Positions 1 to 48,674 of a stretch of DNA of 64,000 bases are shown one piece after another. The notes below the pieces were generated by a model, which ran no database searches, was not told the DNA's origin, and worked only from the letters and a program-made list of their open reading frames with translations. Source of the DNA: an uncultured Alphaproteobacteria bacterium (lineage in GTDB: Bacteria > Pseudomonadota > Alphaproteobacteria > Rhizobiales > Xanthobacteraceae). Position 1 is the first letter of the stretch. Each line of letters opens with the position of its first letter. The translations under genes and the position numbers were made by a program. The stretch is from the NCBI GenBank assembly GCA_963797775.1, contig CAWCQV010000029.1:75964-139963 (forward strand), read 5' to 3'.

Positions 1-242
1 CCGCGCGCCGCGATCATTTCCGGCGGCAGCCGCGTCACCGGCGTGCCGAACACTTCGACGCTGCCGGCGCGCGGCGGCAGGAGCCCGACGCTGACATTCA
101 TGCAGGTCGACTTGCCGGCGCCGTTTCGGCCAAGGAGGCCGAGCAACCTGCCCTCGCCGAGCGCAAACGACACTTGCTGCAGCACGTGGCTGTCGCCGTA
201 GAAGGCATCGATGCCGGTAAGCTTGAGCGCGCTATTCGCCAA
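1..242 (-). CDS. livF: HAAT-family (branched-chain amino acid type) ABC transporter ATP-binding protein, LivF-like; C-terminus outside window
   Basis: The reverse strand of 1-242 translates to (M)ANSALKLTGIDAFYGDSHVLQQVSFALGEGRLLGLLGRNGAGKSTCMNV..., with Walker A GRNGAGKS. A candidate TTG start at 242 overlaps the livG stop. It is the last gene of the livH-M-G-F order. Confidence 0.8.
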   Translation of the reverse strand, partial: MANSALKLTGIDAFYGDSHVLQQVSFALGEGRLLGLLGRNGAGKSTCMNVSVGLLPPRAGSVEVFGTPVTRLPPEMIAAR

Positions 243-969: not shown

Positions 970-1994
970 TGCTGCGGCCCCGCGGTCACGGCTGCGGCTT
1001 TCTGCCGGTTCGCCGCGCGCCACGCCGAGCGGGTAAGCCGCACCGCGCCGGGCACCAGGCCTTCCGGCATGAACACGACGATGGCGACGAAGATGGCGCC
1101 GAGCATGAAATTCCAGCGCGTGATATAGGCGCTCACCACATTCTTCACGATGACGACCAGCGCCGCGCCGACGACCGGTCCGAGGAGCGTTCCGGCGCCG
1201 CCCGAGATCACCATCAGCAGGGCCTCCGCCGAGGCGGTCAGCGCCAGCGCCTGCGGGCTGATGAACTCGGTGTAATAGACGAACAGAATGCCGGCGACGG
1301 CGGTCAGCAGGCCGGAGAACATGAAGGCCCAGAACCGGATCATCCAGACGTGAAAGCCGAGCGCATTCATGCGGCGCGGCTGGTCGCGGGTGCCGGCAAG
1401 CGCGGCGCCGAACGGCGAGCGTACGAAGACCGCCACCGCGGCGAGCGCAAACAAAAACACCACCAGCGTGGCGTTGTAGAAGGCGCTTGGCGAATTGAGC
1501 GACAGCCCGAACGGCGCCGGCCGTGTCGACACGCTGATGCCGTTGTCGCCTCCGGTAATGCTGATCCAGCGATAAGCGAGCCCCCAGATGATCTCGCCGA
1601 GCGCGAGCGTGATCATGATGAAGCTGATGCCGGTCGCGCGTAGCGCCAGCGCGGCAAAGCCGGCCGTAGCCGCAAGCGTCGCAACGAGCGCGGCGACGAT
1701 CGCAACCGCGTGGCCGTGCCCGGCGGCCAGCAGATAGGCATCGACATAGGCCGCGACGCCGAACAATCCGGCATGGCCGAGCGACACCAATCCGGCATAG
1801 CCGACGAGCACATTGAGACCCAGCGCGAACACGGCGTAGAGCAGGATCTGGCTGGCAATATTGACGTAATAGACCTGCGTGATGACGTAAGGCACCGCGA
1901 TCAGCGCCAGGATGGCGATGGCGACGGCAGCGCGCCGCGCGATCAAGGCGCCCGTCACGGGTTTATCCTTTGCAACTGCCGCCGGACTGTTCAC
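966..1994 (-). CDS. livM: Branched-chain amino acid type ABC transporter permease, LivM-like
   Basis: 342-aa polytopic hydrophobic protein lying between the LivH-like permease and the LivG-like ATPase. It has 4-nt overlaps with both neighbours. Confidence 0.85.
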   Translation of the reverse strand: MNSPAAVAKDKPVTGALIARRAAVAIAILALIAVPYVITQVYYVNIASQILLYAVFALGLNVLVGYAGLVSLGHAGLFGVAAYVDAYLLAAGHGHAVAIVAALVATLAATAGFAALALRATGISFIMITLALGEIIWGLAYRWISITGGDNGISVSTRPAPFGLSLNSPSAFYNATLVVFLFALAAVAVFVRSPFGAALAGTRDQPRRMNALGFHVWMIRFWAFMFSGLLTAVAGILFVYYTEFISPQALALTASAEALLMVISGGAGTLLGPVVGAALVVIVKNVVSAYITRWNFMLGAIFVAIVVFMPEGLVPGAVRLTRSAWRAANRQKAAAVTAGPQQ

Positions 1995-2863
1995 AGGATC
2001 TGGCCTCCGAACAGACCCTGCGGGCGGAGCACCAGCACGAGCACCATCGGCAGGAACAAAACGAAATAGGCGAGTTCGGGCAACAGCGCCTGTCCAAAAT
2101 TGTAGATGAAGCCGATGATGATGCTGCCGACGAAAGAGCCAAGCAGGCTTCCGGTGCCGCCGAGGATTACGACCACCAGCGCAAGCGGCAGCATGTCTTG
2201 GTCGAGACCGGGGTAGACCGACAGGATCGGGCCTCCGATCATCCCGGCGAAGCCCGCCAAGCCGGCGCCGAGCGCAAACACCACGGTGAAGAGCTGCGAG
2301 ACGCGGATGCCGACGACGCGCGCCATCTGCGGGTCATCGACGCCGGCGCGGATCATGGCGCCGAGCCGCGTACGTTCGAGCATGAGCCACAGCGCGATCG
2401 CGAACACCACCGCGATGCCGATGACCGCCATCCGGTACAGCGGAAACACCGCTCCGGCAAAGCGGATGAAGCCGGCTAGACCGGGCGGCGTCGCCACTGA
2501 AATCGGATCGCCGCCCCACGCCATCAGGCAGAGATCGGCGGCCATGAAGGAAACGCCCAGCGTCACCAGCACTTGCGCCAATTGCTGACCAGCAAGCCGG
2601 CGCAGTAAAAGGCGCTCCATCAATGCGCCCAGGACTGCAACCTCAAGCGCACCGATGACCGCGGCCAACCAGAAATTCAACGTAAATCCCAGCGCCCCGG
2701 ACAGGTACGTCGTGCCCAGATAGGCGCCGGCCATGAACATCGAGCCATGCGTCAGATTGGGGATGCGCATCAGCCCGAAGATCAATGAAAATCCGGCCGA
2801 CAATAAAAACAACAGGCCGCCGAACGTCACGCTGTTGACGGTAAGCAGCAGCCAAAATGTCAT
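1991..2863 (-). CDS. livH: Branched-chain amino acid type ABC transporter permease, LivH-like
   Basis: 290-aa polytopic membrane protein, first permease gene of the operon. Typical LivH size and position. Confidence 0.85.
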   Translation of the reverse strand: MTFWLLLTVNSVTFGGLLFLLSAGFSLIFGLMRIPNLTHGSMFMAGAYLGTTYLSGALGFTLNFWLAAVIGALEVAVLGALMERLLLRRLAGQQLAQVLVTLGVSFMAADLCLMAWGGDPISVATPPGLAGFIRFAGAVFPLYRMAVIGIAVVFAIALWLMLERTRLGAMIRAGVDDPQMARVVGIRVSQLFTVVFALGAGLAGFAGMIGGPILSVYPGLDQDMLPLALVVVILGGTGSLLGSFVGSIIIGFIYNFGQALLPELAYFVLFLPMVLVLVLRPQGLFGGQIL

Positions 2864-2957
2864 ACCCGCTGCCCCTCCGCGTCCCAGCTACGCTGGATTG
2901 ATTTTGTAACCTGGATTGCGCAAAGTGCAATCCAGGCGGCGCTCAGATGACGCGATT

Positions 2958-4214
2958 TCAACACTTAGTCAGCGGCGGATAGTCGCGCGAATAGACCGGG
3001 TGGACGAGGAATTCCTGTTCCGGCCAGGTCCAGAACTGGCTGACGTTCTCGTAGGTGTGGATGGTCTTATTCCAGAGTTTGAGCCCGTATTTGGCGCCCT
3101 CTTTGACGACGCGCCGGATGTAGATGTTGCCGATCACGTTGTTGAGGTGGTCGAACTTGATCGGACCGCGCGGCGTATCCGTGAGGCTTACAGATTTGAG
3201 CACGGCCATGAACTTTTCTTTGTCGCTTGAGTCGCCGCCGGCCGCCGTCAGGCCGGCGTCCAACACCTGGCAATTGCCGTAGAGCAACGCCGCATATTGG
3301 CCCGGAATGGCGTCGTAATTCTTCAGCATGCCGTCGACGAAGCGCTGGTTGGCGTCGCTTTCGAGATCGAGCGTGTAGGGAGCGGCACTGACCAGTCCGA
3401 GCGCCTCGTCGCCGAAGCTCTTGAGCAGGAAATCGTCGGCGCCAGCTTCTCCGGCGACGACCGGGTATTTCAGCCCGGCGCTGGCATATTGCTTCATAAA
3501 GCGCAGCGGGTTCGAACCGGCAAAGCCCTGGCAGACGCCGTCGCAATCGTTGATCTGGGCGAGATAGGGCGTGTAGTCGGGCGTCACCAACGGCGGCCAC
3601 AATTTATTGACGACGCAGCCGCCATTCTTCGCAAACGATGCCTGAAACCCGCCCATCTGCTCGTAGCCGAAGGCGAAGTCCTCGGTGATGGTAACGACGC
3701 GTTTGAGCTTCAGTTCGGTCGCCGCATAGTGACCGAGAGGCTGGGTCGCCTGCGATGACGTTGCCGATGCGCGCAACAGGTAGGGATTCGGCGTGCGTTG
3801 GGTCAAATTATCGGCCGCCGCGAGGCTGAGCGTCGGCATCTTTCTCTCGATAACATATGCGCTGATGGCATAGAGTTCAAAGGCGGCGAGTGGACCGAGG
3901 ATTACATCGACCCCGTCGCGCTCGACCAGTTCTTGCGCTTTGGTCTTGGCTCCGGCCGGATTTCCGCCGGTGTCGGCCGATATGAAGTCGACCTTGCGGC
4001 CGCCCAACGTGTGGTTCTTCTCCTTCAGGTAAGTGAGCACGCCCTGCTCCATCAGGATGCCGCCCGCAGCGAGCGGGCCGGTCTTGACGCAAAGCAGTCC
4101 GAGTTTGAACGGCGCAGCCTGGGCGAGAGCGGGCGCCGGGAAACGGGTCAATGCGGCGGCGCCGGCCACCGCGGTGCCGGCGAGTAGCGTGCGGCGGCTC
4201 ATTCTGCAAGACAT
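2958..4214 (-). CDS. ABC transporter substrate-binding protein (LivK/Peripla_BP_6-like), Tat signal, paralog 1
   Basis: 418 aa. N-terminus MSCRMSRRTLLAGTAVAGAAALTRFPAPALAQA has a twin-arginine motif and an AxA cleavage site. GGAGG lies 8 nt upstream of the ATG. It sits next to livHMGF. Confidence 0.9.
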   Translation of the reverse strand: MSCRMSRRTLLAGTAVAGAAALTRFPAPALAQAAPFKLGLLCVKTGPLAAGGILMEQGVLTYLKEKNHTLGGRKVDFISADTGGNPAGAKTKAQELVERDGVDVILGPLAAFELYAISAYVIERKMPTLSLAAADNLTQRTPNPYLLRASATSSQATQPLGHYAATELKLKRVVTITEDFAFGYEQMGGFQASFAKNGGCVVNKLWPPLVTPDYTPYLAQINDCDGVCQGFAGSNPLRFMKQYASAGLKYPVVAGEAGADDFLLKSFGDEALGLVSAAPYTLDLESDANQRFVDGMLKNYDAIPGQYAALLYGNCQVLDAGLTAAGGDSSDKEKFMAVLKSVSLTDTPRGPIKFDHLNNVIGNIYIRRVVKEGAKYGLKLWNKTIHTYENVSQFWTWPEQEFLVHPVYSRDYPPLTKC

Positions 4215-4341
4215 GGCATTTTCCTCCCATCAACGGTCATGCTGCGCGGAGGTGGAGCATCCAGCATTCACCGCGGTCCGTCCATGACGGCTCTGCCGGC
4301 GCATAATGGATCATCCGCATGCGCGGATGACGACAAGAACC

Positions 4342-5628
4342 TCAGCACTTGGTCAGCGGCGGATAATCGCGCGAATAGACCGGATGGGAGAGGTATTCCT
4401 GTTCGGGCCAGATCCAGAATTGACTTACGTTCTCGTAAGTCTTGATGGTCTTGTTCCAAAGCTTGAGTCCGTATTTGGCGCCCTCCGTGCCGAGACGGCG
4501 GACATAAACGTTGCCGACCACGTTGTTGAGGTGATCGAACTTGACCGGTCCGCGTGGAGAATCGGGCAGGCTCACCCCTTTCAACGCCATCATGAATTTT
4601 TCTTTGTCGCTGGCATCGCCGCCAGCCGCTTTGAGACCCGCATCGACCACCATGCAATTGACGTAGAGACCGGCGGCGTAGAAACCGGGAATGACGTCGT
4701 AGTCCTTCCTGATCTCGTCGACGAATTTCTGGTTGGCTGCGCTCTCGTTGTCGAGCGTATAGGGGCAGCAAGAAACCAAGCCGAGCGCCTCATCGCCGAA
4801 GCTCTTGAGCAAAGCATCGTCGGCGCCGGTCTCGCCCGTCACCACCGGATACTTCAATCCGGCGCTGGCATAGGCCTTCATGAAGCGCAGCGGGTTCGAT
4901 CCGGCAAAGCCCTGGCAGACGCCGTCGCAATCGCTGATCTGGGCGATGTAGGGTGTATAGTCCGGCGTGACGATCGGCGGCCAAAGCTTATTGACGACGC
5001 AGCCGCCGTCCTTCTGGAACGCGGCCTGGAAGCCGCCCATCTGCTCGTAGCCGAACGCGAAGTCTTCGACGATGGTGAAGACGCGCTTGAGCTTCAATTC
5101 GGTCGCGGCGTAGTGCCCCATGGGATGCATCGCCTGCGACGAAGTCGCCGACGCACGCAACAGGAATGGATTCTGTTTGCGTTGCGTGAGGTCGTCCGCC
5201 GCCGCCAGGCTGAGCGTCGGCATCTTTTGCTCGCGGATATAATCGTTGACGGCATAGAGCTCGAAGGCCGCCAGCGGGCCGAGGATGACATCGACCCTGT
5301 CGCGCTCGACCAGTTCCTGCGCCTTAGTCTTGGCGCCGGCCGGATTGCCGCCGGTATCGGCGGAGACGAAGTCGACCTTGCGGCCACCCATCGTGTAGTT
5401 GGTTTCCTTGAGATAGGTCAGGACGCCCTGTTCCATCTGAATGCCGCCCTGGGCGAGCGGCCCGGTCTTCACGGCAAGAAGGCCGACCTTGAACGGCGCC
5501 GCCTGCGCCACAGCGGGAGCCGGGAAGCGGGAGAGCGCGGCGGCGGCTCCGGCCGCGGTGCCGGCCAATAGCGCGCGGCGCGAAACCTTGTGTGCGCCGT
5601 CCTTCCGAGACATAAGCTTGCGAGACAT
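4342..5628 (-). CDS. ABC transporter substrate-binding protein, Tat signal, paralog 2
   Basis: 428 aa, collinear and highly similar to 2958-4214. Same SRRALLAG Tat motif and same C-terminal YSRDYPPLTKC. A GGGAGGA RBS is present. Confidence 0.9.
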   Translation of the reverse strand: MSRKLMSRKDGAHKVSRRALLAGTAAGAAAALSRFPAPAVAQAAPFKVGLLAVKTGPLAQGGIQMEQGVLTYLKETNYTMGGRKVDFVSADTGGNPAGAKTKAQELVERDRVDVILGPLAAFELYAVNDYIREQKMPTLSLAAADDLTQRKQNPFLLRASATSSQAMHPMGHYAATELKLKRVFTIVEDFAFGYEQMGGFQAAFQKDGGCVVNKLWPPIVTPDYTPYIAQISDCDGVCQGFAGSNPLRFMKAYASAGLKYPVVTGETGADDALLKSFGDEALGLVSCCPYTLDNESAANQKFVDEIRKDYDVIPGFYAAGLYVNCMVVDAGLKAAGGDASDKEKFMMALKGVSLPDSPRGPVKFDHLNNVVGNVYVRRLGTEGAKYGLKLWNKTIKTYENVSQFWIWPEQEYLSHPVYSRDYPPLTKC

Positions 5629-5781
5629 TTCGTATCCTCCCTTGAGCGCCTGGGCTTCGACGCCGTATCTGCAATGCCGATGCGCTCCCAGCGCAACAAC
5701 CTTTCAACTTTCAGATTATCATTTCGGCAGTCTCGGGCGAAGCCCTCCCTCCCCTGCAAAGTCCGCTATTGTCGCGATTTT

Positions 5782-14226: not shown

Positions 14227-15142
14227 TCGTTCCTTCGACCGCCCTCCTGCGCGCCAAAGCGAGTTGCCGCTCGCGCCAGATCACGAACAGGCCGGCTGCC
14301 GCTATCACGAATGAGCCGAGCACGATGATGACCGTCGGCTTTTCGCTGAACATCACGTAGCCGAGCACCAGCGCCCAGATCATCGAGGTGTAGTCGAACG
14401 GCGCGACCATAGAGGCGGAAGCGTGGCGATAGCTCTCGGTGAGAAGAATATGGCCGGTGCCGCCAAGAAAGCCGATCGCGATCAGCATGATGAATTCACT
14501 GCCGGTCGGCGCGATCCAGCCGAACGGCATGGTCACCAGACCGGATAGCGCGCAGATCAGCGAGAAGTAGAATACGATGGACGATGTCGTCTCGCTCTTG
14601 GCCAGATGACGGGTCTGGATCATCGTGCCGGCATTGGTGACGGAGCCGGCAAGCGCATAGATCACGCCGGTGAGGCTGGTCGCGCTTGCCATCGCGATGG
14701 TCAATTCGTCGCCGGAAAAATGCGGCGCCAGTACCACCAGCACGCCGACAAATCCGATCGTCACCGCCGACCAGCGATAGATGCGCACCCGCTCCTTGAG
14801 CACCAGAGCAGCAAGCGCGACGCTGATCAGCGGCGAGGTGAACGAGATCGCGTTCGCCTCGATCAAGGGCAGGCGCGCCAACGCGCCGAAATTGCAGAAC
14901 ATGCCGACAATGCTCAACGCGCCGCGGCTGGCTTGCCCAAGCGGGCTCTCGGTGCGCACGGTCGCGGCCAGCTCGCCGCGGAGGGCGTAAACGGTGAGCA
15001 CCGGCAACAGCGCGAACGCCGAGCGGTAGAACACCACCTCGCCGATCGGATAGCGCGCGCCGAGATAGCGGATCAGCGCCGACATCACGGCGAACAGCAC
15101 TGCCGAGATCAGCTTGAACACGATGCCTTTGCCGGTGTTCAT
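14204..15142 (-). CDS. DMT superfamily (EamA-like) transporter
   Basis: About 312 aa and about 10 TM segments, reading MNTGKGIVFKLISAVLFAVMSALIRYL... It has the two-EamA-repeat appearance. The start is set at ATG 15142. Confidence 0.8.
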   Translation of the reverse strand: MNTGKGIVFKLISAVLFAVMSALIRYLGARYPIGEVVFYRSAFALLPVLTVYALRGELAATVRTESPLGQASRGALSIVGMFCNFGALARLPLIEANAISFTSPLISVALAALVLKERVRIYRWSAVTIGFVGVLVVLAPHFSGDELTIAMASATSLTGVIYALAGSVTNAGTMIQTRHLAKSETTSSIVFYFSLICALSGLVTMPFGWIAPTGSEFIMLIAIGFLGGTGHILLTESYRHASASMVAPFDYTSMIWALVLGYVMFSEKPTVIIVLGSFVIAAAGLFVIWRERQLALARRRAVEGTTTSLQTP

Positions 15143-38576: not shown

Positions 38577-39578
38577 TCATCGCGCCCTTTGCGCCGCCGT
38601 GGCGATTATTTGATAGGCAGCGTTGAGCTGCGGTTTGCCTTTGGAGACGTCTTCGCCGACGCTGGCGAGTTCGTTCAGCATCGCCGCCTGGTCGTCGGCC
38701 GGCAGGCTTATCAACTCGCCGCCGTTGTCAATCCAGGTTTTGCGCGCCTTGGCATTGAAATCGGCCGCCCACGGCGCGATCGCGCCGGACACCGCGGCGG
38801 CGTCCTTATCGACAATCTGCTGCAAGCCCACCGGCAACGAACCGTACCATTTCTTGCTGATCTCGGCGATCCCGAAGACCATGGGTTGGTCGGTTTCAGT
38901 GACGTATTTGGCGGCCTCCCAATATTGCATCGTCGTGATAGCCGTGATGCTGGAGACGGCGCCGTCGATCGCATTGTCCTGCAGCGCCGGCAGCACTTCG
39001 CCTAACGTCATCGGTTTCGGCGTCGCACCGAGCCGCTGGATCGCCACGGTCTGGAACTCCGAGGCGAAAACCCGGATCTTCTTGCCCTTGAAGTCGGCAA
39101 GGCGGCGGATAGGCTTTGTGGCGACGACCGAAGACGGCGCCACCATGAATAGCGCGACGCCGTGCAGCCCCTTGTCGGCTCCGAGGCCGAGCATCAGCTT
39201 GCGTACCGCCGGATCGGCGGCCAGGCGCTGTCCCTCGGCTATCGACTTGACGAGGCCGGGGGCCGCCAGAACTTCGAACCGTTCATCGATACCGACCAGA
39301 AATTCCGGCGGCGCCACCAGACACTCGATCTCGCCAAACTGCACGCCTTCGGCCTGGCGCTGCGTCGAGCCCAATTGGCTGGCAGGATAGATCTCGGCCT
39401 TGATGCGGCCGCCCGAATCCTTCTCGACGGCGGCCGCATAATTCCTCGCGAATTCGTGCAACTGATCGTTCACCGTCGCCAGCGTGATCTTCATCACATA
39501 GGGTTTGTCATCCGCCGCCGCCGCCGCGGATGACGTGATGATGCACAAGACGAAGGCTGCGGCGCGGACGCGCCGCAT
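38577..39578 (-). CDS. TRAP transporter substrate-binding protein (DctP family), paralog 2
   Basis: Collinear with paralog 1 (DDKPYVMKITLATVNDQLHEF...YPASQLGSTQRQAEG). Start is MRRVRAAAFVL (39578) or 39602. Confidence 0.85.
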   Translation of the reverse strand: MRRVRAAAFVLCIITSSAAAAADDKPYVMKITLATVNDQLHEFARNYAAAVEKDSGGRIKAEIYPASQLGSTQRQAEGVQFGEIECLVAPPEFLVGIDERFEVLAAPGLVKSIAEGQRLAADPAVRKLMLGLGADKGLHGVALFMVAPSSVVATKPIRRLADFKGKKIRVFASEFQTVAIQRLGATPKPMTLGEVLPALQDNAIDGAVSSITAITTMQYWEAAKYVTETDQPMVFGIAEISKKWYGSLPVGLQQIVDKDAAAVSGAIAPWAADFNAKARKTWIDNGGELISLPADDQAAMLNELASVGEDVSKGKPQLNAAYQIIATAAQRAR

Positions 39579-39658
39579 GATTTCACGTCCCGCAATGACC
39601 ATAGGTGCCTCCGGTCGCTACTGGCACGAATGAGGCGCGCCCCATACCGGGGGCGCAA

Positions 39659-40705
39659 TTACTGGTTCGCGGTCGGCGCCGTCCGTGCAGCCGCGTCGGT
39701 CACTATTTTGTAGGCCGCGGCAAGCTGTGGATCCGATTTCGACACGTCCGTGCCGACGCTGGAAAGCGTTTTCATCATCGCGGCCTGCTCGTCCGGGGGC
39801 AGATTGATCTGTTCGCCGCCAGCGGCAACCCATGCGGCTTCTGATTTCTTTCGAAGATCGGTTGCAACGGATTGAATAGCAATCGATTGCGCGGCGGCGT
39901 CTTTGTCGATGATCTGCTGCAAATCGGGTGGCAACGAGTCGTACCACTTCTTGCTAACTTCGGCGACGAGGAAGATCGCCGGCTGATTGACCATGGTTAT
40001 GTATTTGGACGCATCAATGAAGTGCAAATGGACGAACGGTCCGACGCCGGCGACGGCGCCGTCGATAGCGCCCTGCTGCAGCGCCGGCAGCACGTCGCCA
40101 AGCGTCATAGCGACCGGCGTCACGCCAAGACGGTTCCATGCCTCGCTTTGGAATTTCGAAGAAAAAGTCCGAAGTTTCTTGCCCTTGAAATCAGCCAGGT
40201 GGCGGATGGGGTTTTTTGAAATCACGTCGGATGGTTCGGCCATCATCAGTGCGACGCCGTGCAGACCCTTATCGGCGCCAAGCGACAGCATCAACTTGAC
40301 CACTGCGGGATCCGCCGCGACCTTCTGACCGTGTCCCACCAACTCGACGAGCCCCGGAGCGGCCATTACCTCGAAGCGCTCATCGACGCCGACAAAGAAT
40401 TCCGGCGGGATAACCGAACATTGAATGGAGCCGAATTGCGTTCCTTCGATCTGCCGCGGGATGGCGCCGAGCTGGCTGGCCGGATAAACCTCGACCTTGA
40501 TACGCCCGCCGGAATCCTTTTCGACCGCAGCTCCGTACATGTTGGCAAACGTGTCCGGCACATCGTGAATGGTCGGGGTCGAAATTTTCATTACGTAAGT
40601 TTTGTCTTGCGCTTGTGCGCCGCCGAGCGACAGGGCCAAGGCCCCGGCTAACACGCCCGTTGCAAGCACCGAACGAGCGATCGGCGCCGGTTTAATGGAT
40701 TTCAT
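39659..40705 (-). CDS. TRAP transporter substrate-binding protein (DctP family), paralog 3
   Basis: MKSIKPAPIARSVLATGVLAGALALSLGGAQAQDKTYVMKISTPTIHDVPD... A GGGAGGA RBS lies upstream of ATG 40705. Confidence 0.88.
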   Translation of the reverse strand: MKSIKPAPIARSVLATGVLAGALALSLGGAQAQDKTYVMKISTPTIHDVPDTFANMYGAAVEKDSGGRIKVEVYPASQLGAIPRQIEGTQFGSIQCSVIPPEFFVGVDERFEVMAAPGLVELVGHGQKVAADPAVVKLMLSLGADKGLHGVALMMAEPSDVISKNPIRHLADFKGKKLRTFSSKFQSEAWNRLGVTPVAMTLGDVLPALQQGAIDGAVAGVGPFVHLHFIDASKYITMVNQPAIFLVAEVSKKWYDSLPPDLQQIIDKDAAAQSIAIQSVATDLRKKSEAAWVAAGGEQINLPPDEQAAMMKTLSSVGTDVSKSDPQLAAAYKIVTDAAARTAPTANQ

Positions 40706-40832
40706 GAATTCCTCCCTGTTCGGCTGGACCAGCATCGGACATGCCCTCGCCTCGGCCATTAGGATACAGCAAACCTGCAACGGGAGCTGGCGGAATTCCG
40801 ATCTACGGGAGCACGCCGCGCGTTGCTGCCGA

Positions 40833-41872
40833 TCACTGGCTCGCGGTTTGCGCGGCCCGCGCCGCCGCGTCGGTCACGATCTTATAGGCTGCGGCAAGCT
40901 GCGGATTCGACTTCGATACATCCGCGCCGACGCTTGAAAGCGTCTTCATCAGAGTTGCCTGCTCATCAGGCGGCAGCTTTATCTCCTCGCCACCACTAGC
41001 TGTATAATTTGCCTCGGATTTGGCGCGGAATTGGGCGGCAGTGGGAGCAATAGCGATAAACTCCGCCGCTCCACCCCACTCAACAATTTCCTGCAGACCT
41101 TGGGTAAGGAATCGTACCATTTCCTGTTGACTACAACGATGAGAAAAATCGACGGTTGATTGGTCATCGTCACGTATTTCGCCGCATCGACAAAGTGCAT
41201 ATGGGTAATGGGGCCCATTCCCGTGACAGCGCCATCGATGGCGCCTTGCTGGATGGCCGGCAGGACGTCGCCAAGCGACATGGCCACGGGCGTCACGCCA
41301 AGTCGCTCAAATGCCACGCTTTGGAACTGCGAAGCGAAAATACGGATCTTCTTGCCCTTGAAGTCCGCGAGCGTGCGGATCGGGTTCTTGGTCACGATGT
41401 CAGAGGGTTCGGCCATAAACAAGCCGACACCGTGTAGGCCTTTATCGACGCCGAGCGAGAACATCAGCTTGCGGACCTCGGGATCGGCAGCGACCTTCTG
41501 ACCCTGCGCGAGCGACGCGACTAGCCCCGGCGCGGCCATGACCCCAAAACGCTCGTCGAGACCAACCATAAACTCCGGCGGAACGACTTCGCACTGAATC
41601 GCGCCGAACTGCGTGCCTTCGATCTGGCGCGGGATCGAGCCGAGCTGGCTCGCGGGATAAACCTGGACCTTGATGCGGCCGCCGGAATCCTTTTCCAGCG
41701 CCGCGCCGTAGTTTCTGGCCCAGGTGTCGGGAACGTCGTTGATGGTCGGGGTCGAAATCTTCATCTCGTAGGTCTGGCTTTGCGCCCGCGCCGCGCCGAG
41801 CGGCAGCGCCAAGGCGAAGGCAGTCGCGGCAACGATTGAACGCGCCACGCGGCTGCGTTGCATGCTGTTCAT
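40833..41872 (-). pseudogene. TRAP substrate-binding protein paralog 4, split by a 1-nt deletion near 41098
   Basis: ORF 40979-41965 follows the paralogs up to ...KWYDSLPK and then reads out of frame. ORF 40833-41120 (..GLQEIVEWGGAAEF...GGEEIKLPPDEQATLMKTLSSVG...) resumes the alignment. Changing CCCAAGGTCTG to CCCAAGGGTCTG would restore the frame. Confidence 0.75.
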
Positions 41873-42044
41873 ATTGCCCTCCCTGTCGGCAACGCTTGCG
41901 GCACCGCGCCAGGGCGATGGCGAGCTCCCCCATGCCGAGACGGTAAAGATACAGTAATTTTGCAACCGTGGCGCGTAGAAATCTCGGTCTGTGACGGACT
42001 GCCGCGCCCGCTTTAGCGGTCACGCGCGGCACGGCGAAACGTGG

Positions 42045-43094
42045 TCACCGCCGGTGATAATCGCGATACCAGGCCACGAATTTATGCACGCCTTGTTCGA
42101 TCGGCGTCGACGGGCGGAAACCGACGTTGCGCATCAGGTCGTCGACATCGGCGCAGGTTTCCGGGACATCGCCGGGCTGCATCGGCACAAGCTCGGTCTT
42201 AGCCTTACGGCCGAATTCCTGCTCCAGCAATTCGACGACGCGCAGCACCTCGACTGTGCGGTTGTTGCCGATATTGTAGATTCGCCATGGCGCGGCGCTG
42301 CTGGCCGGATCGGGTTCGCCGCCCGGCGGCGGGCCGGTTCTCGCCGGCACGCGGGAGATAACCCGTTCGACCGCCTCGATGGCGTCATCGACATACGTGA
42401 AATCCCGCCGCATGCGGCCGTAATTGAACAATCTTATCGGCCGGTTCTCGGCGATAGCCTTGGCGAACATGAACATCGCCATATCCGGTCGGCCCCACGG
42501 ACCGTAGACGGTGAAGAACCGCAATCCGGTCGTGGGCAGATCGTAGAGATAACTGTAGGCGTGGGCCATCAGCTCGTTTGCCTTTTTGGTCGCGGCGTAG
42601 AGACTGATCGGATGATCGACATTGTCATGTACGGAAAACGGTAACCGCGTATTGGCGCCATAGACCGAACTCGATGACGCGAACACGAGATGCTCGGTGC
42701 GGCGATGACGGCAGCCTTCCAAAACGTTGAGGAAGCCCGCGAGATTGGCGTCGAGATAGGCGTGAGGGTTTTGCAGCGAGTAGCGCACGCCGGCCTGTGC
42801 AGCGAGATGCACCACCGGACCGAAATCGCCGTCGTGAAATAACGCATCGCTGCTTTTGCGATCGGCGAGATCGAGCTTGCGGAAAAAGAAGTTGTTAAAT
42901 TGCCGCAAAACCGCGAGCCGCGCCTCTTTGAGCGCGGGATCGTAATAATCGTTGACGCTATCGACGCCGACAACGGCGCGACCGCCCTCCAGAAGCCGGC
43001 GCGCCAGGGCAAAGCCGATAAAACCAGCCGCGCCGGTGATCAGGACGGGATGTTGCGACGTTGTCAGGTCTGCGCGCTTATCGTTCGGCGTCAC
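42045..43094 (-). CDS. NAD-dependent epimerase/dehydratase (UDP-glucuronate 4-epimerase-like)
   Basis: 349 aa. Contains VLITGAAGFIGFALARRLLEGG...VNDYYDPALKEARL... and YAATKKANE (the YxxxK motif). It has a 4-nt overlap with the cysNC stop. Confidence 0.85.
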   Translation of the reverse strand: MTPNDKRADLTTSQHPVLITGAAGFIGFALARRLLEGGRAVVGVDSVNDYYDPALKEARLAVLRQFNNFFFRKLDLADRKSSDALFHDGDFGPVVHLAAQAGVRYSLQNPHAYLDANLAGFLNVLEGCRHRRTEHLVFASSSSVYGANTRLPFSVHDNVDHPISLYAATKKANELMAHAYSYLYDLPTTGLRFFTVYGPWGRPDMAMFMFAKAIAENRPIRLFNYGRMRRDFTYVDDAIEAVERVISRVPARTGPPPGGEPDPASSAAPWRIYNIGNNRTVEVLRVVELLEQEFGRKAKTELVPMQPGDVPETCADVDDLMRNVGFRPSTPIEQGVHKFVAWYRDYHRR

Positions 43095-44995
43095 AAAAGC
43101 ATGCCGCGCCGCTGCATGAAATCGATGATGCGATCGGCGAGGTCGCCGGCGCTTTCGTTGAGCGCGTCGAGGATCAATTCGGGATTGACGGGCGGCTCGT
43201 AGGCCGAATCGATTCCAGTGAAATTCTGTAACTCACCCCGTCGCGCCTTCTTATACAGGCCCTTGGGATCGCGCCGTTCGCAAGTTTCGAATGGCGTGTT
43301 GACGAAAATTTCGACGAATTCGCCCGGCCCGACGAGTTCGCGCGCCATCTCGCGCTCCGCCCGGAACGGCGAGATGAAGGAAACCAGCGTAATCAGGCCC
43401 GCCTCGACGAACAATTTCGCCACTTCGGCGACGCGGCGGATATTCTCGACGCGGTCGGCTTCGGTAAAACCGAGATCGCGATTGAGCCCGTGGCGGACAT
43501 TGTCGCCGTCAAGCACGAATGTATGCTTGCCGAGCGCGTGAAGCTTCTTTTCCAACTGATCGGCAATGGTCGATTTGCCGGCGCCGGACAGGCCGGTGAA
43601 CCACAGCAGCGCCGGCTGTTGTGCATTCAGTCCCGCGCGCGCCGCCTTCGTGACTTCGAAGGCTTGAAAATAGGTATTGGCGGAGCGGCGTAGACCAAAG
43701 CGGATCAGGCCCGCACCCACCGTGGCGTTGCTATGGCGGTCAATTAGAATAAACCCGCCGGTCTCGCGGCTGTCGTCGTAGGGGTCGAAGCTGATGGGCT
43801 CCGCGGTGGCGACATTGACGAACGCGATTTCGTTGAGATGCAGTTCCTTGGCGGCGAGATGCTCGAAATTTTCGATATCGATGCGATATTTAAGTTCCGT
43901 CACAGTGGCGCTGACGCTCTGTGCCCCGGCTTTGAGCAGATAGGTCCGGCCGGGCAAGAGCGGGATTTCCGACATCCAAATGAGATGCGCAGCCACAGCA
44001 TCGGCCCGCTGCGGCGGTTCCTCGACGGAGCTGATAATATCGCCGCGCGATACGTCGATGGCGTCCGCCAGCACAACGGTCACGGCATCGGAGGCCGATG
44101 CGGCGTCGAGATCGCCGTCCATGGACACGATGCGCGCGATGCGCGATTGCACCCCGGTGCGCGGAACGACGATTTCCATACCTTGCCGCAACACGCCAGA
44201 CGTAACCGTTCCGGCATAACCGCGGAAATTCGCATCCGGCCGATTGACATATTGCACCGGCAGCCGAAGCGGCGCCGCTCCTGGCCGCTCGCCCACCGCG
44301 ATGGTCTCCAGATATTCAAGCAACGGGACGCCGCGGTACCACGGCATCCGCGGGCTGTTCTGCACCACGTTGTCGCCGTAGAGCGCGGACGTTGGAATGG
44401 CGACAAAGCGGCAACCGTCAAATCGGCCGGCGAATTGCGCAAAGCCTTCGGCAATGGCCAGAAACCGGTGCTCGTCGAAGCCGATCAAGTCCATCTTGTT
44501 CACGACGAGGATCAAATCGCGAATGCCTAGCAGCGAGCACAGGTAGGCATGCCGCCGCGTCTGTTCGAGAAGGCCTTTCGCCGCGTCGACCAATAGGATC
44601 GCGAGATCCGAAGTCGACGCCCCGGTGACCATGTTGCGCGTGTAGTCCTTGTGGCCCGGCGTGTCGGCCACGATGAAGCGCCGCCGCGGCGTACCGAAAT
44701 AGCGATAGGCGACGTCGATCGTGATGCCCTGCTCGCGTTCAGCCTCGAGCCCATCCACCAGCAATGCGGGATCGACGTCGCCCGCGACCGTGCCATGCGT
44801 CTTGGAATCGCGTGTCAGCGCCGCAACGTGATCGTCGAAAACGAGCGATGCATCGAGGAGAAGCCGGCCGATCAGCGTCGACTTACCGTCGTCGACGGAG
44901 CCGCAAGTGAGAACGCAGAGCTGGTCGCGGTCGGCGGCGAATGGACCCGATGCAACGGCGGCGATGGCGATGCCTGGATCAGAAATAGCCTTCAC
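43091..44995 (-). CDS. cysNC: Bifunctional sulfate adenylyltransferase subunit 1 / adenylylsulfate kinase (CysNC, NodQ-like)
   Basis: 634 aa. The GTPase domain has [16 protein letters not shown] and DTPGH. The C-terminal APS kinase domain has [14 protein letters not shown]. Confidence 0.92.
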
Positions 44996-45920
44996 GTTTC
45001 TTCTTCTCCATGGAATCGCCCTCGTCGTGACCGATCAAACGACCGGCGCGTTCGGAGGTCGCAGCAGCTTGCATTTCTTCGACGATGTCGGCGACCGTGG
45101 CGGCGCCGGACTCGATGGCGCCGGTGAGCGGATAGCAGCCGAGTGTGCGAAACCGCACCGTGCGGATAACCGGCCCCTCCTCGGGCTCTAGCGGCAGCCG
45201 TTCGTCGTCGACGACAATAAGGCCGCCGCTTCTTTGCACGACTCGGCGCGGCGCCGCGAAGTAAAGCGGCACCACCGGGATTTTCTGGTGCTCGATATAG
45301 CGCCAGACGTCGAGCTCAGTCCAATTGGACAGCGGGAAAACTCTGATCGATTCGCCCGCGGCGACACGGCAATTGTAGAGGTGCCACAGTTCGGGCCGCT
45401 GGTTCTTCGGATCCCAGACATGAGCGGCGGAGCGGAACGAGAACACGCGCTCCTTGGCCCGGCTTTTCTCTTCGTCGCGGCGCGCGCCGCCGAATGCGGC
45501 ATCGAAGCCATATTGGCTCAGCGCCTGTTTCAGCGCCTCGGTTTTCATGACGTGGGTGTAGTACGACGAGCCGTGGGTGAACGGATTGACGCCTTGAGCC
45601 ACACCGTCGCGATTGATGTGCACGATCAAATCGAGCCCAAGCCCCGCGGCTGTCTCGTCGCGGAATCGGATCATTTCGCGGAATTTCCACGTGGTATCGA
45701 TATGCAGAAGTGGAAATGGCAAGGCTGAAGGAAAGAATGCCTTGCGCGCAAGATGCAGCAGGACCGAGGAGTCCTTGCCGATCGAATAGAGCAGAACCGG
45801 CTTCTTAAATTCAGCCGCCACCTCGCGGAATATGTGGATTGCTTCCGCTTCGAGGCGGCGCAGGTCGGGTGGCGGCAATCGGTCGGTCAAGTTGCGATCT
45901 CGAGTTCGATGATTCAACAC
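44979..45920 (-). CDS. cysD: Sulfate adenylyltransferase subunit 2 (CysD, NodP-like)
   Basis: 313 aa. Contains [19 protein letters not shown] and [20 protein letters not shown] (PP-loop). It has a 17-nt overlap with the cysNC start. Confidence 0.92.
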
Positions 45921-46007
45921 GGCAGTGGCGCTCGACTAATGAGCGGCCATCGGATGCAAGTCGGCAATCGCGTTCCCATTTTCCGCCGAAGCATCAGCCG
46001 AATTATC

Positions 46008-46019
46008 CACGCTACCGCA
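46008..46019 (-). promoter_or_regulatory. ops-like element TGCGGTAGCGTG (11/12 match to enterobacterial GGCGGTAGCGTG) in the cysD leader
   Basis: Read directly: the reverse complement of cacgctaccgca (46008-46019) is TGCGGTAGCGTG. It is on the coding (non-template) strand of the minus-strand operon, 51 nt after the NusG-paralog stop. A 7-bp hairpin (46024-46042) precedes it. Confidence 0.5.
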
Positions 46020-46069
46020 ATCCGGGTGAGGGAATCTCACCCGAACGCGCACAGACGACCAGTCCGCGG

Positions 46070-46585
46070 CTAGGCCGCGGCGACCAAATCCGCATCCAGC
46101 ACCACGCGAACCTTGCGGCCCAATAGATCGAGCAAAATCGCGATGCGTTCCCGTTCCGCCATGCCTTCAAACAAGCCGAGGCAGGACGTGAATGCGCCGT
46201 CGAGCACGCGTATCTTGTCGCCGGCGCGAAACGGCGGCCGGCAATCGAGCTTGATGAAGCCATTGGCATCCTGACGACTCTTCAGCGCCTCGATAATGCC
46301 GTCCGGCACCGCGGTGGGATCGTCGCCATTGCAAACCAGCCGCGTGACGCCGACGGTCGAGTAGATCGAGCGCCAGCGCTGCGCCGCCAGGTCGACCGCG
46401 ACGAACAGGTAGCGGGGAAACAGCGGCGCCGCGACGGTTTCGATGCGGCGGGCATGCCGGCGCCGCTTTAAATAGCGCGGGAAGTAGATTTCAAAACCCT
46501 GGCGATTGAGATGCGCCGTCGCTTTGGCTTCGGCATGCGGATGGGTGTGGGCGACGAACCAGCGCGGATGCAGTCCGGTTGTCAT
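46070..46585 (-). CDS. Specialised NusG paralog (RfaH-like transcription antiterminator; NGN + KOW)
   Basis: 171 aa. The NGN-like N-terminus reads WFVAHTHPHAEAKATAHLNRQGFEIYFPRY...PLFPRYLFV. The KOW-like segment reads GDKIRVLDGAFTSCLGLFEGM. Confidence 0.75.
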   Translation of the reverse strand: MTTGLHPRWFVAHTHPHAEAKATAHLNRQGFEIYFPRYLKRRRHARRIETVAAPLFPRYLFVAVDLAAQRWRSIYSTVGVTRLVCNGDDPTAVPDGIIEALKSRQDANGFIKLDCRPPFRAGDKIRVLDGAFTSCLGLFEGMAERERIAILLDLLGRKVRVVLDADLVAAA

Positions 46586-47226
46586 GCGACGATCTCCGTT
46601 GTCCGATCAATCCGTATTCCCAGTAACGCGGGCACTAAGACGCGATCCGCATCGAGTTGGTCAGCCACGGCCTTCACCGATTCGCGCGTCGCTTCGAGAT
46701 CGGTCACGAGGAGCGCGTCAAATCCTCCCGGTACTGCCGCAATCGCCTTGACGATGGGAGTGCCGACGAAGCGGGAGTTTTCGGATTTGGCGTCGACCAC
46801 TGCCACAATCGTAATGCCCTGTTCGAGCGCGCAGATAATGGCGATTTCGGCAAGATCGGAGACGCCGATCAGCGCAATCCGGTTCCAACCGTGCGCATGT
46901 GCCGCCATAAGTACGGACGAGCAATCCTCGCGGGCGTGGCGGAAGAACGAGAACGATCTGGAAAGGTATTCGACCGTGAGCCGCGACTTCTCGGCAAACC
47001 CGTGCGGCGTCAGGTAATAGGCATAGCGACGCGGCGGGACTTGGCCGATTTTCAGGAGGCCCTTTTTTACACAGCGCTTGAGGTAGGCGTTCACCAAGCC
47101 GAGCGCGATGCCGAGGTCGGAGGCAAGCTTGCGCTGGGACTGGGCGCCATCGCGCTCAACCGACTCAAGCAGGCCGAGCACGATCCGGCTGTTGTCCGTT
47201 TCCTCGTTGCGCGCCGCATGAGGCAT
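46582..47226 (-). CDS. Winged-helix transcriptional regulator with a Rossmann-like C-terminal domain (Rex-like architecture)
   Basis: The wHTH reads RKLASDLGIALGLVNAYLKRCVKKGLLKI..YAYYLTPHG. The C-domain reads WNRIALIGVSDLAEIAIICALEQGITIVAVVD. The start is set at MPHAARN (47226), with GGGAGG 7 nt upstream. The stop overlaps the NusG-paralog start as ATGA. Confidence 0.65.
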   Translation of the reverse strand: MPHAARNEETDNSRIVLGLLESVERDGAQSQRKLASDLGIALGLVNAYLKRCVKKGLLKIGQVPPRRYAYYLTPHGFAEKSRLTVEYLSRSFSFFRHAREDCSSVLMAAHAHGWNRIALIGVSDLAEIAIICALEQGITIVAVVDAKSENSRFVGTPIVKAIAAVPGGFDALLVTDLEATRESVKAVADQLDADRVLVPALLGIRIDRTTEIVA

Positions 47227-47259
47227 CGCATCGCCTCCCATCCGGCGCCAGAAGTACAT

Positions 47260-47331: not shown

Positions 47332-47973
47332 TTATTTAGAACCTGCTCCGCTTCCGAACAGACTGCGCTCCACCAGGCCGCAAATTGCGTGCGCCGCGAC
47401 AATGTGGATTTGCTGGATCAGCGGGGTCTCGGCCGACGGCGCGGCCAGACAGTGATCGCACAACGGCTGCATCGTGCCGTTGGCAGCGGTTCCGGTGAAG
47501 CCGACGGTGGTCAGTCCTACTTCGCGCGCAGCTTGCAGCGCCGCGACGACGTTCGGCGAGCGCCCAGAAGTGGAGATCGCGATAAACACGTCGCCCTTTT
47601 GGCCCAGGCCGCGAACCTGGCGCTCGAACGCATGATCGAAACCGTAATCGTTGCCGATTGCGGTGAGAACCGACGAGTCGGTGGTCAGCGCGATTGCCGG
47701 TAGCGGATTGCGGTCAAAATTCAAGCGCGACAAAAACTCGCCGGCGATGTGCTGGGCGTCGGCGGCGCTGCCGCCGTTGCCGGCGATCAGGAGCTTATGG
47801 CCGGCGCGAAACGCAGCCGCGATCGCATCGGCAATTGCATGGATAGCGGCGCGCAATTTCGCATCTTCCGCCGCGCGAGACAGCGTCTCGCACGAGCGAC
47901 GAAAGTGCTCGGCCACCATATCGTTCTGTGAGGTCATGGCTTTGCCGTTTTCAGGTGGCTGTGGACCTAACAT
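47332..47973 (-). CDS. gmhA: D-sedoheptulose 7-phosphate isomerase (SIS domain)
   Basis: Contains [20 protein letters not shown]...[16 protein letters not shown]...[16 protein letters not shown]. The start may be MTSQND at 47937. Confidence 0.85.
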
Positions 47974-47987
47974 AATTTCCTTGTGCT

Positions 47988-48674
47988 ATGAAAGGCTATC
48001 GGCACGCGATGCAAAGAAAGATCCGACCGATGCCGCTTGCAGACTATCCGCTAAATGCCGAGGGCGTGTGGTGCGAGGTGTTAACGACGCCCCAGCCTGG
48101 CCGTCCGGCGCTGTTTTTGGATCGCGACGGCGCCGTCGTCGAGGACACCGAATATTTATGCCGCGTCGAAGACGTCGCGATGATTCCCGGGGCCGCGGCA
48201 GTGATTGCCGCCGCCAATGAACGCGGGATGCCGGTTGTGCTGGTGACCAATCAAGCAGGCATCGGCCGCGGATACTATGGATGGAGCGAATTCAAGCGCG
48301 TTCAAGAGGCGATTGTCGCGGCCTTGGCGGCCGAAGGCGCGCGCCTGGACGCTGTCTATGCCTGTGCGCATCATCCCGAGGGCCGCGATGGGTTCGCCCA
48401 TCCGGACCATCCGGCGCGCAAGCCAAATCCAGGCATGCTGTTGCAGGCGGCGTCCGATCTCGCGATCGAGCGCAAGATGTCGTGGCTTGTCGGCGACAGG
48501 GCAAGCGACGTTGAGGCGGCGAAGCGCGCTGGCCTCGCCGGCGCCATGCAGGTCGCCACTGGCTATGGCCTGACCGAGCGTGCGCGCGTCGCCGGGCTCG
48601 CTACACCGACATTCAAAGTCCGTTTCGGCCGCTCGATTGCCGACGCGATGACGTTGCCCATCCTTCGGTCATGA
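47988..48674 (+). CDS. gmhB: D-glycero-D-manno-heptose 1,7-bisphosphate phosphatase (HAD-IIIA)
   Basis: Contains ALFLDRDGAVV, VLVTNQAGIGRGYY, RKPNPGML and VGDRASDVEAAKRAG. The start may be downstream (48009 or 48030). Confidence 0.8.
   Translation: MKGYRHAMQRKIRPMPLADYPLNAEGVWCEVLTTPQPGRPALFLDRDGAVVEDTEYLCRVEDVAMIPGAAAVIAAANERGMPVVLVTNQAGIGRGYYGWSEFKRVQEAIVAALAAEGARLDAVYACAHHPEGRDGFAHPDHPARKPNPGMLLQAASDLAIERKMSWLVGDRASDVEAAKRAGLAGAMQVATGYGLTERARVAGLATPTFKVRFGRSIADAMTLPILRS

Follow-up and report, generated by a model that had tools for sequence, protein, structure and literature searches.

A hairpin-linked ops-like element downstream of a MarR-associated, RfaH-like NusG paralog: a candidate loading site in Alphaproteobacteria

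The combination of a hairpin with an ops-type sequence is already known, from JUMPstart in gammaproteobacteria and from opsX in Bacteroides. RfaH/ops is the standard example of a transcription factor recruited through non-template DNA, and how it is recruited has been established in enterobacteria only. For E. coli ops, G5 and T6 are read base-specifically, C3:G8 closes a small DNA hairpin, and H20, R23, Q24 and R73 of RfaH form the pocket for T6; pausing does not require the central bases G4-G8, whereas RfaH cannot bind without them (Zuber 2018; PMC5995543). The Bacteroides UpxY sites are multipartite and about 40 bp long, with a NusA-enhanced pause hairpin that buys time, and the UpxY NGN domain reads a non-template GCG..AGC hairpin together with upstream duplex DNA (PMC11685472). 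In a survey of rfaH genes, 18% were alphaproteobacterial, cluster CL4 was associated with an HTH regulator, and neighbours were enriched in envelope and polysaccharide genes; only E. coli RfaH had a known recruitment mode, and no site was described (Wang 2020; PMC7593976). A 2026 preprint documents cis-encoded, predicted-beta RfaH homologues that lack some ops-binding residues and are ops-independent in an E. coli reporter (PMC13015549).

In the literature that we searched, which included few subscription-journal papers, no paper describes where alphaproteobacterial RfaH-like proteins are loaded, including those that mention RfaH and Alphaproteobacteria together. Among the best 30 of 2,269 matches listed, motif strings were found in gammaproteobacterial or unrelated papers only, and RfaH combined with genus names gave no relevant match. 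A sequence-only reading of the locus had likewise known of no cognate site for an alphaproteobacterial NusG paralog, and our search agrees with it: we found no description of the alphaproteobacterial MarR-linked extended ops site reported here, which is apparently new to the literature searched. Judging from its conservation and gene linkage, we think it likely that this element is where RNA polymerase pauses and the RfaH-like NusG paralog, whose gene lies immediately upstream, is loaded, which would make it an alphaproteobacterial counterpart of JUMPstart/ops.

The features of the locus are collected in Table 1; "the window" refers to the whole 64-kb stretch of DNA that was analysed. The stop of the MarR-like gene overlaps the start of the paralog gene, and a MarR-like gene lies directly upstream of the paralog in nearly all loci. 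The MarR-like protein carries an extra C-terminal Rossmann-like segment. In the window, cysD is the first gene downstream of the element, and the gene for the SDR epimerase is the last co-directional one in the presumed unit.

Table 1. Positions of genes and sequence features at the locus, in window coordinates
Feature	Position	Strand	Basis or detail
MarR-like winged-helix regulator, 225 aa	46582..47259	-	HTH_24; TIGR04176 MarR_EPS 58.5 bits, below cut-off
RfaH-like NusG paralog, 171 aa, NGN + KOW	46070..46585	-	PF02357
Composite element (hairpin, 3-nt linker, ops-like motif, conserved G at +13)	46006..46046	-	covariance model
Hairpin	46021..46045	-	5´ arm TTCGGGTGAG 46036-46045; loop ATTCC 46031-46035; 3´ arm CTCACCCGGA 46021-46030
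ops-like 12-mer TGCGGTAGCGTG	46008..46019	-	T1 G2 C3 G4 G5 T6 A7 G8 C9 G10 T11 G12
cysD, sulfate adenylyltransferase small subunit	44979..45920	-	TIGR02039, 506 bits
cysN-cysC fusion (sulfate adenylyltransferase large subunit + APS kinase; makes PAPS)	43091..44995	-	NF004035, 935 bits
NAD-dependent sugar-nucleotide epimerase/dehydratase (SDR)	42045..43094	-	PF01370; no equivalog reached

The 12-mer stands on the minus strand in the context ...GCGCGTTCGGGTGAGATTCCCTCACCCGGAT-TGCGGTAGCGTG-GATAATTCGG... and matches GGCGGTAGCGTG at 11 of 12 positions, with GCGGTAGnnTG fully matched. Its core, GCGGTAGC, is identical at 8/8 positions to the non-template hairpin sequence of E. coli ops. The ops consensus GGCGGTAGnnTG is present on the coding strand of the operon leader, with TG at positions 11-12, and T11-G12 form the putative pause dinucleotide. 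The motif begins 51 nt past the paralog stop (46070-46072), with 50 nt lying between, and ends 88 nt before the cysD GTG at 45920, with 87 nt lying between. The 11/12 match, the orientation appropriate for a minus-strand operon and both distances were already given correctly in the sequence-only reading, which had also considered a chance match very unlikely. This last judgement is borne out by shuffling and by conservation in relatives: GCGGTAGNNTG occurs once within the 64-kb window where shuffles expect 0.31 (both strands); scaled down to the 149-nt spacer and its correct strand, the expectation is about 4e-4. It is the conservation of the motif across relatives that settles the question, and the shuffle counts, this conservation and the sharp bounds of the conserved island together rule out a chance match. 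No sigma-70-like promoter was found between 45700 and 47500. An intrinsic terminator or attenuator is not supported either, there being no terminator-like site in the same interval and the hairpin being followed by GGAUUGCGGUAGCGUGG, with no U tract.

The hairpin directly 5´ of the motif has 10 pairs and a 5-nt loop (RNA fold -22.6 kcal/mol, z = -3.0), and its conserved core stem is CGGGTGA/TCACCCG. A 7-bp hairpin at 46024-46042 had been noted before; it is real, but forms the GC-rich core of the longer, 10-bp stem. Hairpin and motif together make a composite element of about 40 nt, composed of the stem CGGGTGA/TCACCCG, a fixed 3-nt linker and [T/G]GCGGTAGC-N1-2-TGG. A MAFFT alignment of the diverse set (A2) was unusable as the basis of a covariance model, since differing loop lengths put the 5´ arms out of register, and the model was built from 23 equal-length sequences comprising hairpin and motif. 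On the window it recovers the composite element at 58.9 bits (E 7.5e-15), with the next best match at 9.4 bits. Each paralog locus holds a single significant match to it, in all cases just downstream of the paralog, and the rest of the 416 kb scanned has none.

From the core stem to position 1 of the motif the linker is always 3 nt, also in loci retrieved by protein similarity alone; formation of the outer U-G and U-A pairs would shrink the spacer to 1 nt. We compared 77 distinct instances: 61 have A-U as the innermost stem pair and 13 have G-U, 33 have U-G as the outer pair, 15 U-A and 8 C-G, and [T/G]GCGGTAGC is found in 75. In close relatives 94.8% of stem cells are paired and only one pair changes on both sides, so that covariation is weak because the stem hardly varies; in L047, the stem is maintained through compensatory changes. 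Among the distant members, L042, L045 and L035 are mismatched at one position of the stem, and here the two arms differ: the 3´ arm is clearly more constrained than the 5´ arm, and is invariant where the 5´ arm is mismatched. With a pause at T11, the E. coli position, the end of the core stem would fall at register -15 (-13 when the outer pairs are counted), and the hairpin end would lie 12-15 nt behind the RNA 3´ end at T11/G12, which is the range of pause hairpins. The hairpin is probably a nascent-RNA pause hairpin and, on the comparative data, is an integral, equally conserved part of the predicted signal with fixed spacing to ops.

Despite this architecture, the element is not a member of the Rfam JUMPstart family RF01707. 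The E. coli rfb leader, our positive control, scores 60 bits on RF01707 and has a 5-bp stem, a 9-nt loop and 1 unpaired base before GGCGGUAGCGUG. In contrast, window positions 45800-46200 give no match to RF01707 at E<=10 (gathering threshold 35 bits), nor does any Rfam family match at the element at E<=10, and membership was rejected for lack of a covariance-model match. The family model fails on the window element because the stem sequences are unrelated. What the element shares with JUMPstart is a stem-loop, 1-3 unpaired nt and ops, in the leaders of long polysaccharide operons; it differs in a stem of 7-10 bp rather than 5, and from E. coli ops in position 1, which is T in most copies.

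The sequence-only reading had asked whether GCGGTAGnnTG is conserved in orthologous leaders, and we found that it is. A scan with one genome per species gave 37 loci, mostly from soil Xanthobacteraceae-like MAGs, from which we set aside one with a housekeeping NusG followed by rplK (L036) and one containing only the 3´ end of the paralog (L033). In 31/35 relatives GCGGTAG lies 52-130 nt after the paralog stop. The other four include three single-base variants of the motif (L006, L017 and L031) and a Devosia locus with the paralog but without the element (L026). A gammaproteobacterial MAG (L034) is among the 31; there the order is paralog, MarR, then exact GGCGGTAGCGTG. Exact GGCGGTAGCGTG is also carried by L033, L038 and L048. 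A second GCGGTAGCGTGG in L007, at 5238, was rejected because it lies inside a CapD-like coding motif (GSRGSV).

Information content, computed for 34 relatives anchored on the motif, reaches 1.6-2.0 bits at -10 to -4 (TCACCCG) and at +1 to +9, and the 5´ arm and positions +10 to +13 carry 1-1.6 bits; the flanks fall to 0.02-0.3 bit beyond -42 upstream and from about +20 downstream. The conserved island spans -25 to +13 and is sharply bounded. G4-G8 of the ops-like motif are invariant among relatives. Conservation is moderate in a G/U-rich tract at -42 to -26, and 3´ of the element the loci have unrelated sequences.

The element is also kept in relatives at 36-51% protein identity, in both AT-rich and GC-rich genomes. 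Representatives of this group were fetched via their encoding contigs, and in each of them an HTH_24 gene and then the paralog precede the element, with polysaccharide genes after it. Their elements read GGGTGG-N6-TCACCCGAAC-GGCGGTAGCGTG, TTCGGGTGA-N4-TTCACCCGAAG-TGCGGTAGCATTGG, TCTGGTGGC-GAAA-GTCACCTGGAC-TGCGGTAGCAGTG, CCTGGTG-N5-TCACCCGGAG-TGCGGTAGCATGG and, in an AT-rich genome, CTTTGGG-N7-CCCAAAG-TGCGTGAGCATGG, whose stem is preserved by compensatory changes. Homologues on plasmids or chromids of cultured strains, at 36-42% identity, have no MarR neighbour. Near such homologues an ops-like 12-mer was found in Ensifer and Agrobacterium, and was absent in Bradyrhizobium ISRA443 and Sulfitobacter. 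This inconsistency suggests that the composite element is tied to the MarR-linked clade.

In every paralog locus with called genes, the downstream genes share their coding strand with the element, and these genes vary by locus: cysD, ABC exporter, NeuB, Polysacc_synt_2, NTP_transferase and GFO_IDH are all found. Even in the closest relative, whose paralog is 98% identical, a 619-aa ABC exporter lies between the element and cysD, and cysD is downstream in three loci only (relatives from genome assemblies). The proposal that the target is a PAPS-synthesis/uronate-epimerase operon therefore holds for the gene order in the window, where cysD, cysNC and the epimerase gene do follow, but the element is not specific to this cargo.

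No neighbour of the element is more constant than the MarR-like gene, and one might ask whether the co-encoded MarR-like dimer binds the inverted repeat TTCGGGTGA...TCACCCGGA as a double-stranded DNA operator, for repression or roadblock, with the ops resemblance incidental or secondary. Like a MarR operator, the repeat forms a near-perfect palindrome, and its 3´ arm is conserved beyond the need of pairing alone. However, the distance from CGGGTG to CACCCG ranges from 4 to 13 nt over the 77 distinct instances, which a rigid dimer cannot accommodate, and G-T (G-U) positions leave the half-sites asymmetric in many copies. Variable arm spacing and tolerated G-U wobbles point to a stem-loop in a single strand rather than a dimer operator of fixed geometry. 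The most conserved block, GCGGTAGC, is moreover non-palindromic and equals the sequence read by RfaH, and hairpin-bearing copies exist without an adjacent MarR gene. We consider the operator explanation unlikely.

Among profiles, the paralog scores first with TIGR01955 RfaH (112.8 bits, short of the equivalog cut-off of 144.5), followed by UpxY NF033644 (70.6; cut-off 100), NusG (56.6) and LoaP NF033641 (42.7; cut-off 125), and its best PDB match is E. coli RfaH (E 1e-11; NusG 1e-7). H25, R28 and Q29 correspond to H20, R23 and Q24 of RfaH, such that the H-L-x-R-Q pocket is kept. Housekeeping NusG has no RfaH-type H-L-x-R-Q pocket, and E. coli NusG reads S-L-R-E-H at these positions. Across a family of 45 members, the Q24 position is Q in 44/45, the H20 position is H or N in 41/45 and the R23 position is R in 31/45; equivalents of T72, G74 and V75 are kept in at least 42/45 (>=93%). 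Two of the four RfaH side chains that touch ops directly, K10 and R73, have unconserved equivalents, being H15 and V78 in the paralog, and in the family H/Q/R/K and mostly I/V/F, respectively. E. coli NusG has F at the K10 position (Wang 2020; PMC7593976). Taken with the conserved element, the RfaH-closest protein and its retained pocket support the ops-like loading-site interpretation that was first put forward from the letters of the window.

In E. coli RfaH, E48 is the autoinhibition residue, and its loss makes the protein ops-independent. The equivalent is A53 in the paralog, and is never Glu in the 45 family members. I93, F130 and R138 of RfaH are kept, and the autoinhibition set (E48, I93, F130 and the E48-R138 salt bridge) is incomplete through the missing E48. 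An AlphaFold2 prediction from 45 sequences (mean pLDDT 84.5) gave five beta strands for KOW residues 124-170 (pLDDT 74-83), and no helical hairpin in the KOW domain. On this model, the paralog appears to lack an autoinhibitory fold switch, although a metamorphic domain could give the same prediction.

We infer roles in pausing, binding and antitermination, and the respective parts of RNA hairpin and upstream duplex, from sequence, conservation, geometry and linkage. RNA polymerase would read in from the marR-like and paralog genes, or start at a promoter dedicated to the element at other loci. It would transcribe the hairpin and pause at T11/G12 of TGCGGTAGCGTG, at which point 12-15 nt would separate the end of the nascent RNA hairpin from the RNA 3´ end, the distance at which pause hairpins act. 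The non-template strand would then expose GCGGTAGC, the E. coli version of which folds as a small C3:G8 hairpin presenting G5 and T6, and the invariant TCACCCGGA would be duplex DNA directly behind the bubble. The NGN domain of the paralog could bind the paused complex via its H25/R28/Q29 pocket and stay on polymerase, excluding NusG/Rho and suppressing pausing. Polysaccharide-related downstream genes would in this way be fully transcribed, which in the window would be cysD, cysNC (PAPS for sulfation) and the epimerase gene.

It could be argued that the nascent RNA hairpin is itself the primary ligand of the paralog, as for LoaP, and that the ops-like sequence provides the pause only. LoaP of the Firmicutes is similar in that a locus-linked NusG paralog is found together with a conserved leader hairpin; we know of no ops-type DNA motif for it. 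The hairpin described here is conserved as much as ops and is rigidly spaced from it, the paralog is a predicted beta-KOW protein without R73 and K10, and LoaP is reported, as cited in another study (PMC11685472), to use a leader RNA hairpin. Yet mismatches are tolerated in the 5´ arm and none in the 3´ arm, an asymmetry that speaks against helix read-out and better suits read-out of DNA or of one strand, and the analogous Bacteroides region is read as duplex DNA, not RNA (PMC11685472). The paralog is also far below the LoaP model, so that we did not assign it to LoaP, and we regard an RNA ligand as very improbable.

The asymmetry between the arms is explained by the upstream-duplex read-out described for UpxY, and the tighter constraint on the promoter-distal (3´) arm suits such a read-out. 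The likeness to the Bacteroides system extends to a site of about 40 bp combining pause hairpin, upstream duplex and non-template GCG..AGC hairpin, and to a locus-linked NusG paralog heading variable operons for capsule or polysaccharide. In B. fragilis, the PSE site ttggctgagaaaaagagtctcacccaaCTGCGAAGCATA (..tctcacccaaCTGCGAAGCATA) is visibly similar to the present element (PMC11685472). Several differences stand against membership of UpxY/opsX, which we rejected on the profile score below cut-off, the MarR-like neighbour and the GCG-GT-AGC motif: opsX has GCG-N-AGC (YGCGNAGCR), with one loop base fewer; it lies upstream of upxY, where the partner is the anti-factor UpxZ rather than a MarR-like protein; and opsX sites are locus-specific, whereas the present site is nearly identical everywhere. 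Among the paralog families and solved structures compared, E. coli RfaH comes closest to the paralog, with the same GCGGTAGC core plus TG and equivalents of H20, R23 and Q24 kept, but the paralog is without E48 and R73, its KOW domain is a predicted beta barrel, and it scores below the RfaH equivalog cut-off. By description, the HTH-linked RfaH proteins of CL4 resemble the window paralog. To judge by these comparisons, the element is best described as a MarR-linked alphaproteobacterial variant of RfaH/ops (JUMPstart), with an extended, opsX-like site.

A broader reading, which we offer tentatively as possible rather than likely, is that of a portable cassette across Alphaproteobacteria. It would head hypervariable polysaccharide loci and consist of an extended ops of ~40 nt, a MarR/Rossmann regulator that senses a ligand and an RfaH-like factor that is non-metamorphic, with a beta-KOW domain and no E48. 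The factor would be recruited by reading both the non-template GCGGTAGC hairpin and the invariant upstream duplex TCACCCGGA, with help from the pause RNA hairpin. If this is true, the cassette would be an evolutionary intermediate between E. coli RfaH/ops and Bacteroides UpxY/opsX, and dependence on ops would predate the fold switch and not require one. The most interesting aspect, in our view, is the tension with the ops-independence proposed for cis-encoded beta-type homologues, a tension that draws on structure prediction and comparative data. The extreme conservation of an ops-type site beside such a predicted beta-KOW paralog argues for a role of the site in its native host, in this clade at least. 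Our data also provide a concrete candidate for the site at which the RfaH-like proteins of the large alphaproteobacterial branch are loaded, and suggest that read-out of GCGGTAGC may be conserved across proteobacterial classes and coexist with a paralog apparently without a fold switch.

An exact-pattern scan of metagenome contigs with CACCCGRANKGCGGTAGC (17-18 nt) gave at least 120 loci, which we classed by hairpin pairing. The covariance-model score did not discriminate cleanly, since the 18-nt search pattern is built into every match and inflates the scores; a match in coding sequence (L055) still reached 27 bits. Among the matches listed, 71/120 have the paralog no more than 260 nt upstream, and 16/120 have too little upstream sequence to judge. 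Another 14 of those listed are without the hairpin and look like chance or coding matches, as expected for a 17-base pattern in a collection of such size. About 15-19 of the matches listed, a few of them doubtful, have the hairpin and no paralog in at least 650 nt upstream.

These copies without an adjacent paralog bear on whether any protein reads GCGGTAGC at all, since the element could be a hairpin-stabilised consensus pause that serves transcription-translation coupling, or the stability or processing of the mRNA 5´ end. The ops sequence does fit the general elemental pause consensus (PMC5995543), and the hairpin is at pause-hairpin distance from T11. That consensus leaves the central bases free, though, and G4-G8 are invariant here, which indicates base-specific read-out. 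Among the informative matches listed, 71/104 are linked directly to the paralog gene, and the paralog keeps its RfaH-type pocket. A pause independent of the paralog is, on this evidence, improbable.

For the pause-and-load reading, the paralog-less copies are of interest through their contexts. All 11 that were examined lie among polysaccharide genes, and 10/11 are co-directional with a neighbouring one; the exception (L060) lies between two opposite-strand genes. Copies are found before CpsB/CapC, before a FkbM methyltransferase gene, between methyltransferase and NTP_transferase genes, before Wzy_C (in L106 a Wzz/GNVR tyrosine kinase gene is next), between Wzy_C and Bac_transf, and after Bac_transf. 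A trans-acting RfaH-like regulon would look like this. The covariance model could be used to annotate the starts of polysaccharide, capsule and LPS-modification operons in soil Alphaproteobacteria, and to define such a regulon. At one locus that does have the paralog (L067), a convergent acyltransferase gene lies between paralog and element, and the element there must be served by its own promoter.

Two metagenome-assembled genomes (MAGs) contain several modules in which a MarR-like partner gene, the RfaH-like NusG paralog gene and the hairpin-plus-ops-like element occur together, with different genes after each: L011 and L020 in CAWFLM01, and L019, L022 and L027 in CAWEMR01. L022 and L027, which are nearly identical to each other, could be variants from different strains or duplicates created by assembly. 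If the multiple modules per MAG are real, one nearly identical site is common to several polysaccharide loci, which would differ from Bacteroides, where the sites are locus-specific. At the sequence level, the alphaproteobacterial element (TTCGGGTGAG..CTCACCCGGAT TGCGGTAGCGTG) is similar to the hairpin-ops site of B. fragilis PSE, ttggctgagaaaaagagtctcacccaaCTGCGAAGCATA (PMC11685472, Methods): in both, a 3´ arm with CACCC is joined to TGCG..AGC by a linker rich in purines. This likeness could reflect either deep homology or convergence.

Features discussed, with coordinates (window positions unless a locus is named)
Feature	Position	Strand	Remarks
Three DctP-type genes (TRAP transporter solute-binding) in a row	38577-41965	-	directly downstream of the epimerase gene
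Element, window	46006-46046	-
Element, L047	4541-4581
G/U-rich tract	~46045-46061; -42 to -26 in relatives	-	5´ of the hairpin
MarR-like partner gene	46582-47259	-	winged-helix domain, residues ~26-107; ~110-aa C-terminal Rossmann-like segment (RIALIGVSDLAEIAIICALEQGITIVAVVD...)
SIS-domain (GmhA-like) gene	47332-47973	-	upstream of the MarR-like gene
HAD (GmhB-like) gene	47988-48674	+	divergent from the SIS-domain gene, upstream of the MarR-like gene
Second ops-like match	14414-14425	+
ABC exporter gene, L001	4595-6454
Corresponding window segment without the exporter gene	45921-46007
L026 paralog locus	2346-2855
L034 locus	4001-4976
L060 element	2417-2452
L048/L049 modules	1-3081
L172 homologue region	3550-3600
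L173 homologue region	5700-5740
L174 homologue region
L175 homologue region

Within the window, the architecture of the MarR-like partner recalls that of Rex-type nucleotide-sensing repressors, a resemblance that makes a nucleotide or nucleotide sugar a candidate signal for this protein; searches of its C-terminal segment for Pfam and PDB matches found none. The synteny of the GmhA-like and GmhB-like genes is kept in many close relatives, so that a heptose-type sugar pathway travels with the MarR-like/paralog pair.

L001, the closest relative (paralog 98% identical to that of the window), has a gene for a 619-aa ABC exporter between the element and cysD, which is absent from the window. Identity between the two runs to 15 nt past the motif (GATAATTCGGCTGAT) and is followed by divergence, so that an indel or recombination breakpoint lies immediately behind the element. 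Just 5´ of the hairpin lies a G/U-rich, C-poor tract (consensus GTGTTGCGTTTGTGTGTT) that is moderately conserved in close relatives (0.4-0.75 bit), the version in the window (TGGTCGTCTGTGCGCGTT) being more diverged than theirs. A second ops match in the window, GGCGGAAGCGTG, has one mismatch (T6A), no hairpin beside it and a score of 8.3 bits on the covariance model, and is probably a chance match.

Homologues of the paralog on plasmids or chromids of cultured strains (L172-L175) are 36-42% identical to it and have no MarR neighbor. Ensifer adhaerens has ..CTCACCTTCGG-TGCGGTAGCCTG 141 nt past the paralog, and in Agrobacterium sp. MA01 TGCGGTAGCTTG lies between genes of that strain's polysaccharide cluster; no ops-like motif was found near the homologue in Bradyrhizobium sp. 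ISRA443 or Sulfitobacter faviae. A Devosia MAG (L026) encodes a paralog of 63% identity with the MarR-like gene upstream, but no recognizable element was found at this locus, where a glycosyltransferase-like ORF begins almost directly past the paralog stop codon.

In a gammaproteobacterial MAG (L034, paralog 38% identical), the MarR-like gene follows the paralog, and after it comes a perfect copy of the canonical GGCGGTAGCGTG; the hairpin in front of this motif is a different one, without a CACCC arm. The hairpin-bearing element of L060 lies between two opposite-strand genes, Glycos_transf_4 and Asn_synthase, and is the only copy not co-directional with a neighboring gene among those examined from the matches listed. 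Finally, in one metagenome (L048/L049), the module, with an exact GGCGGTAGCGTGG, adjoins TrwC-type relaxase genes, suggesting that a conjugative or integrative element carries it.
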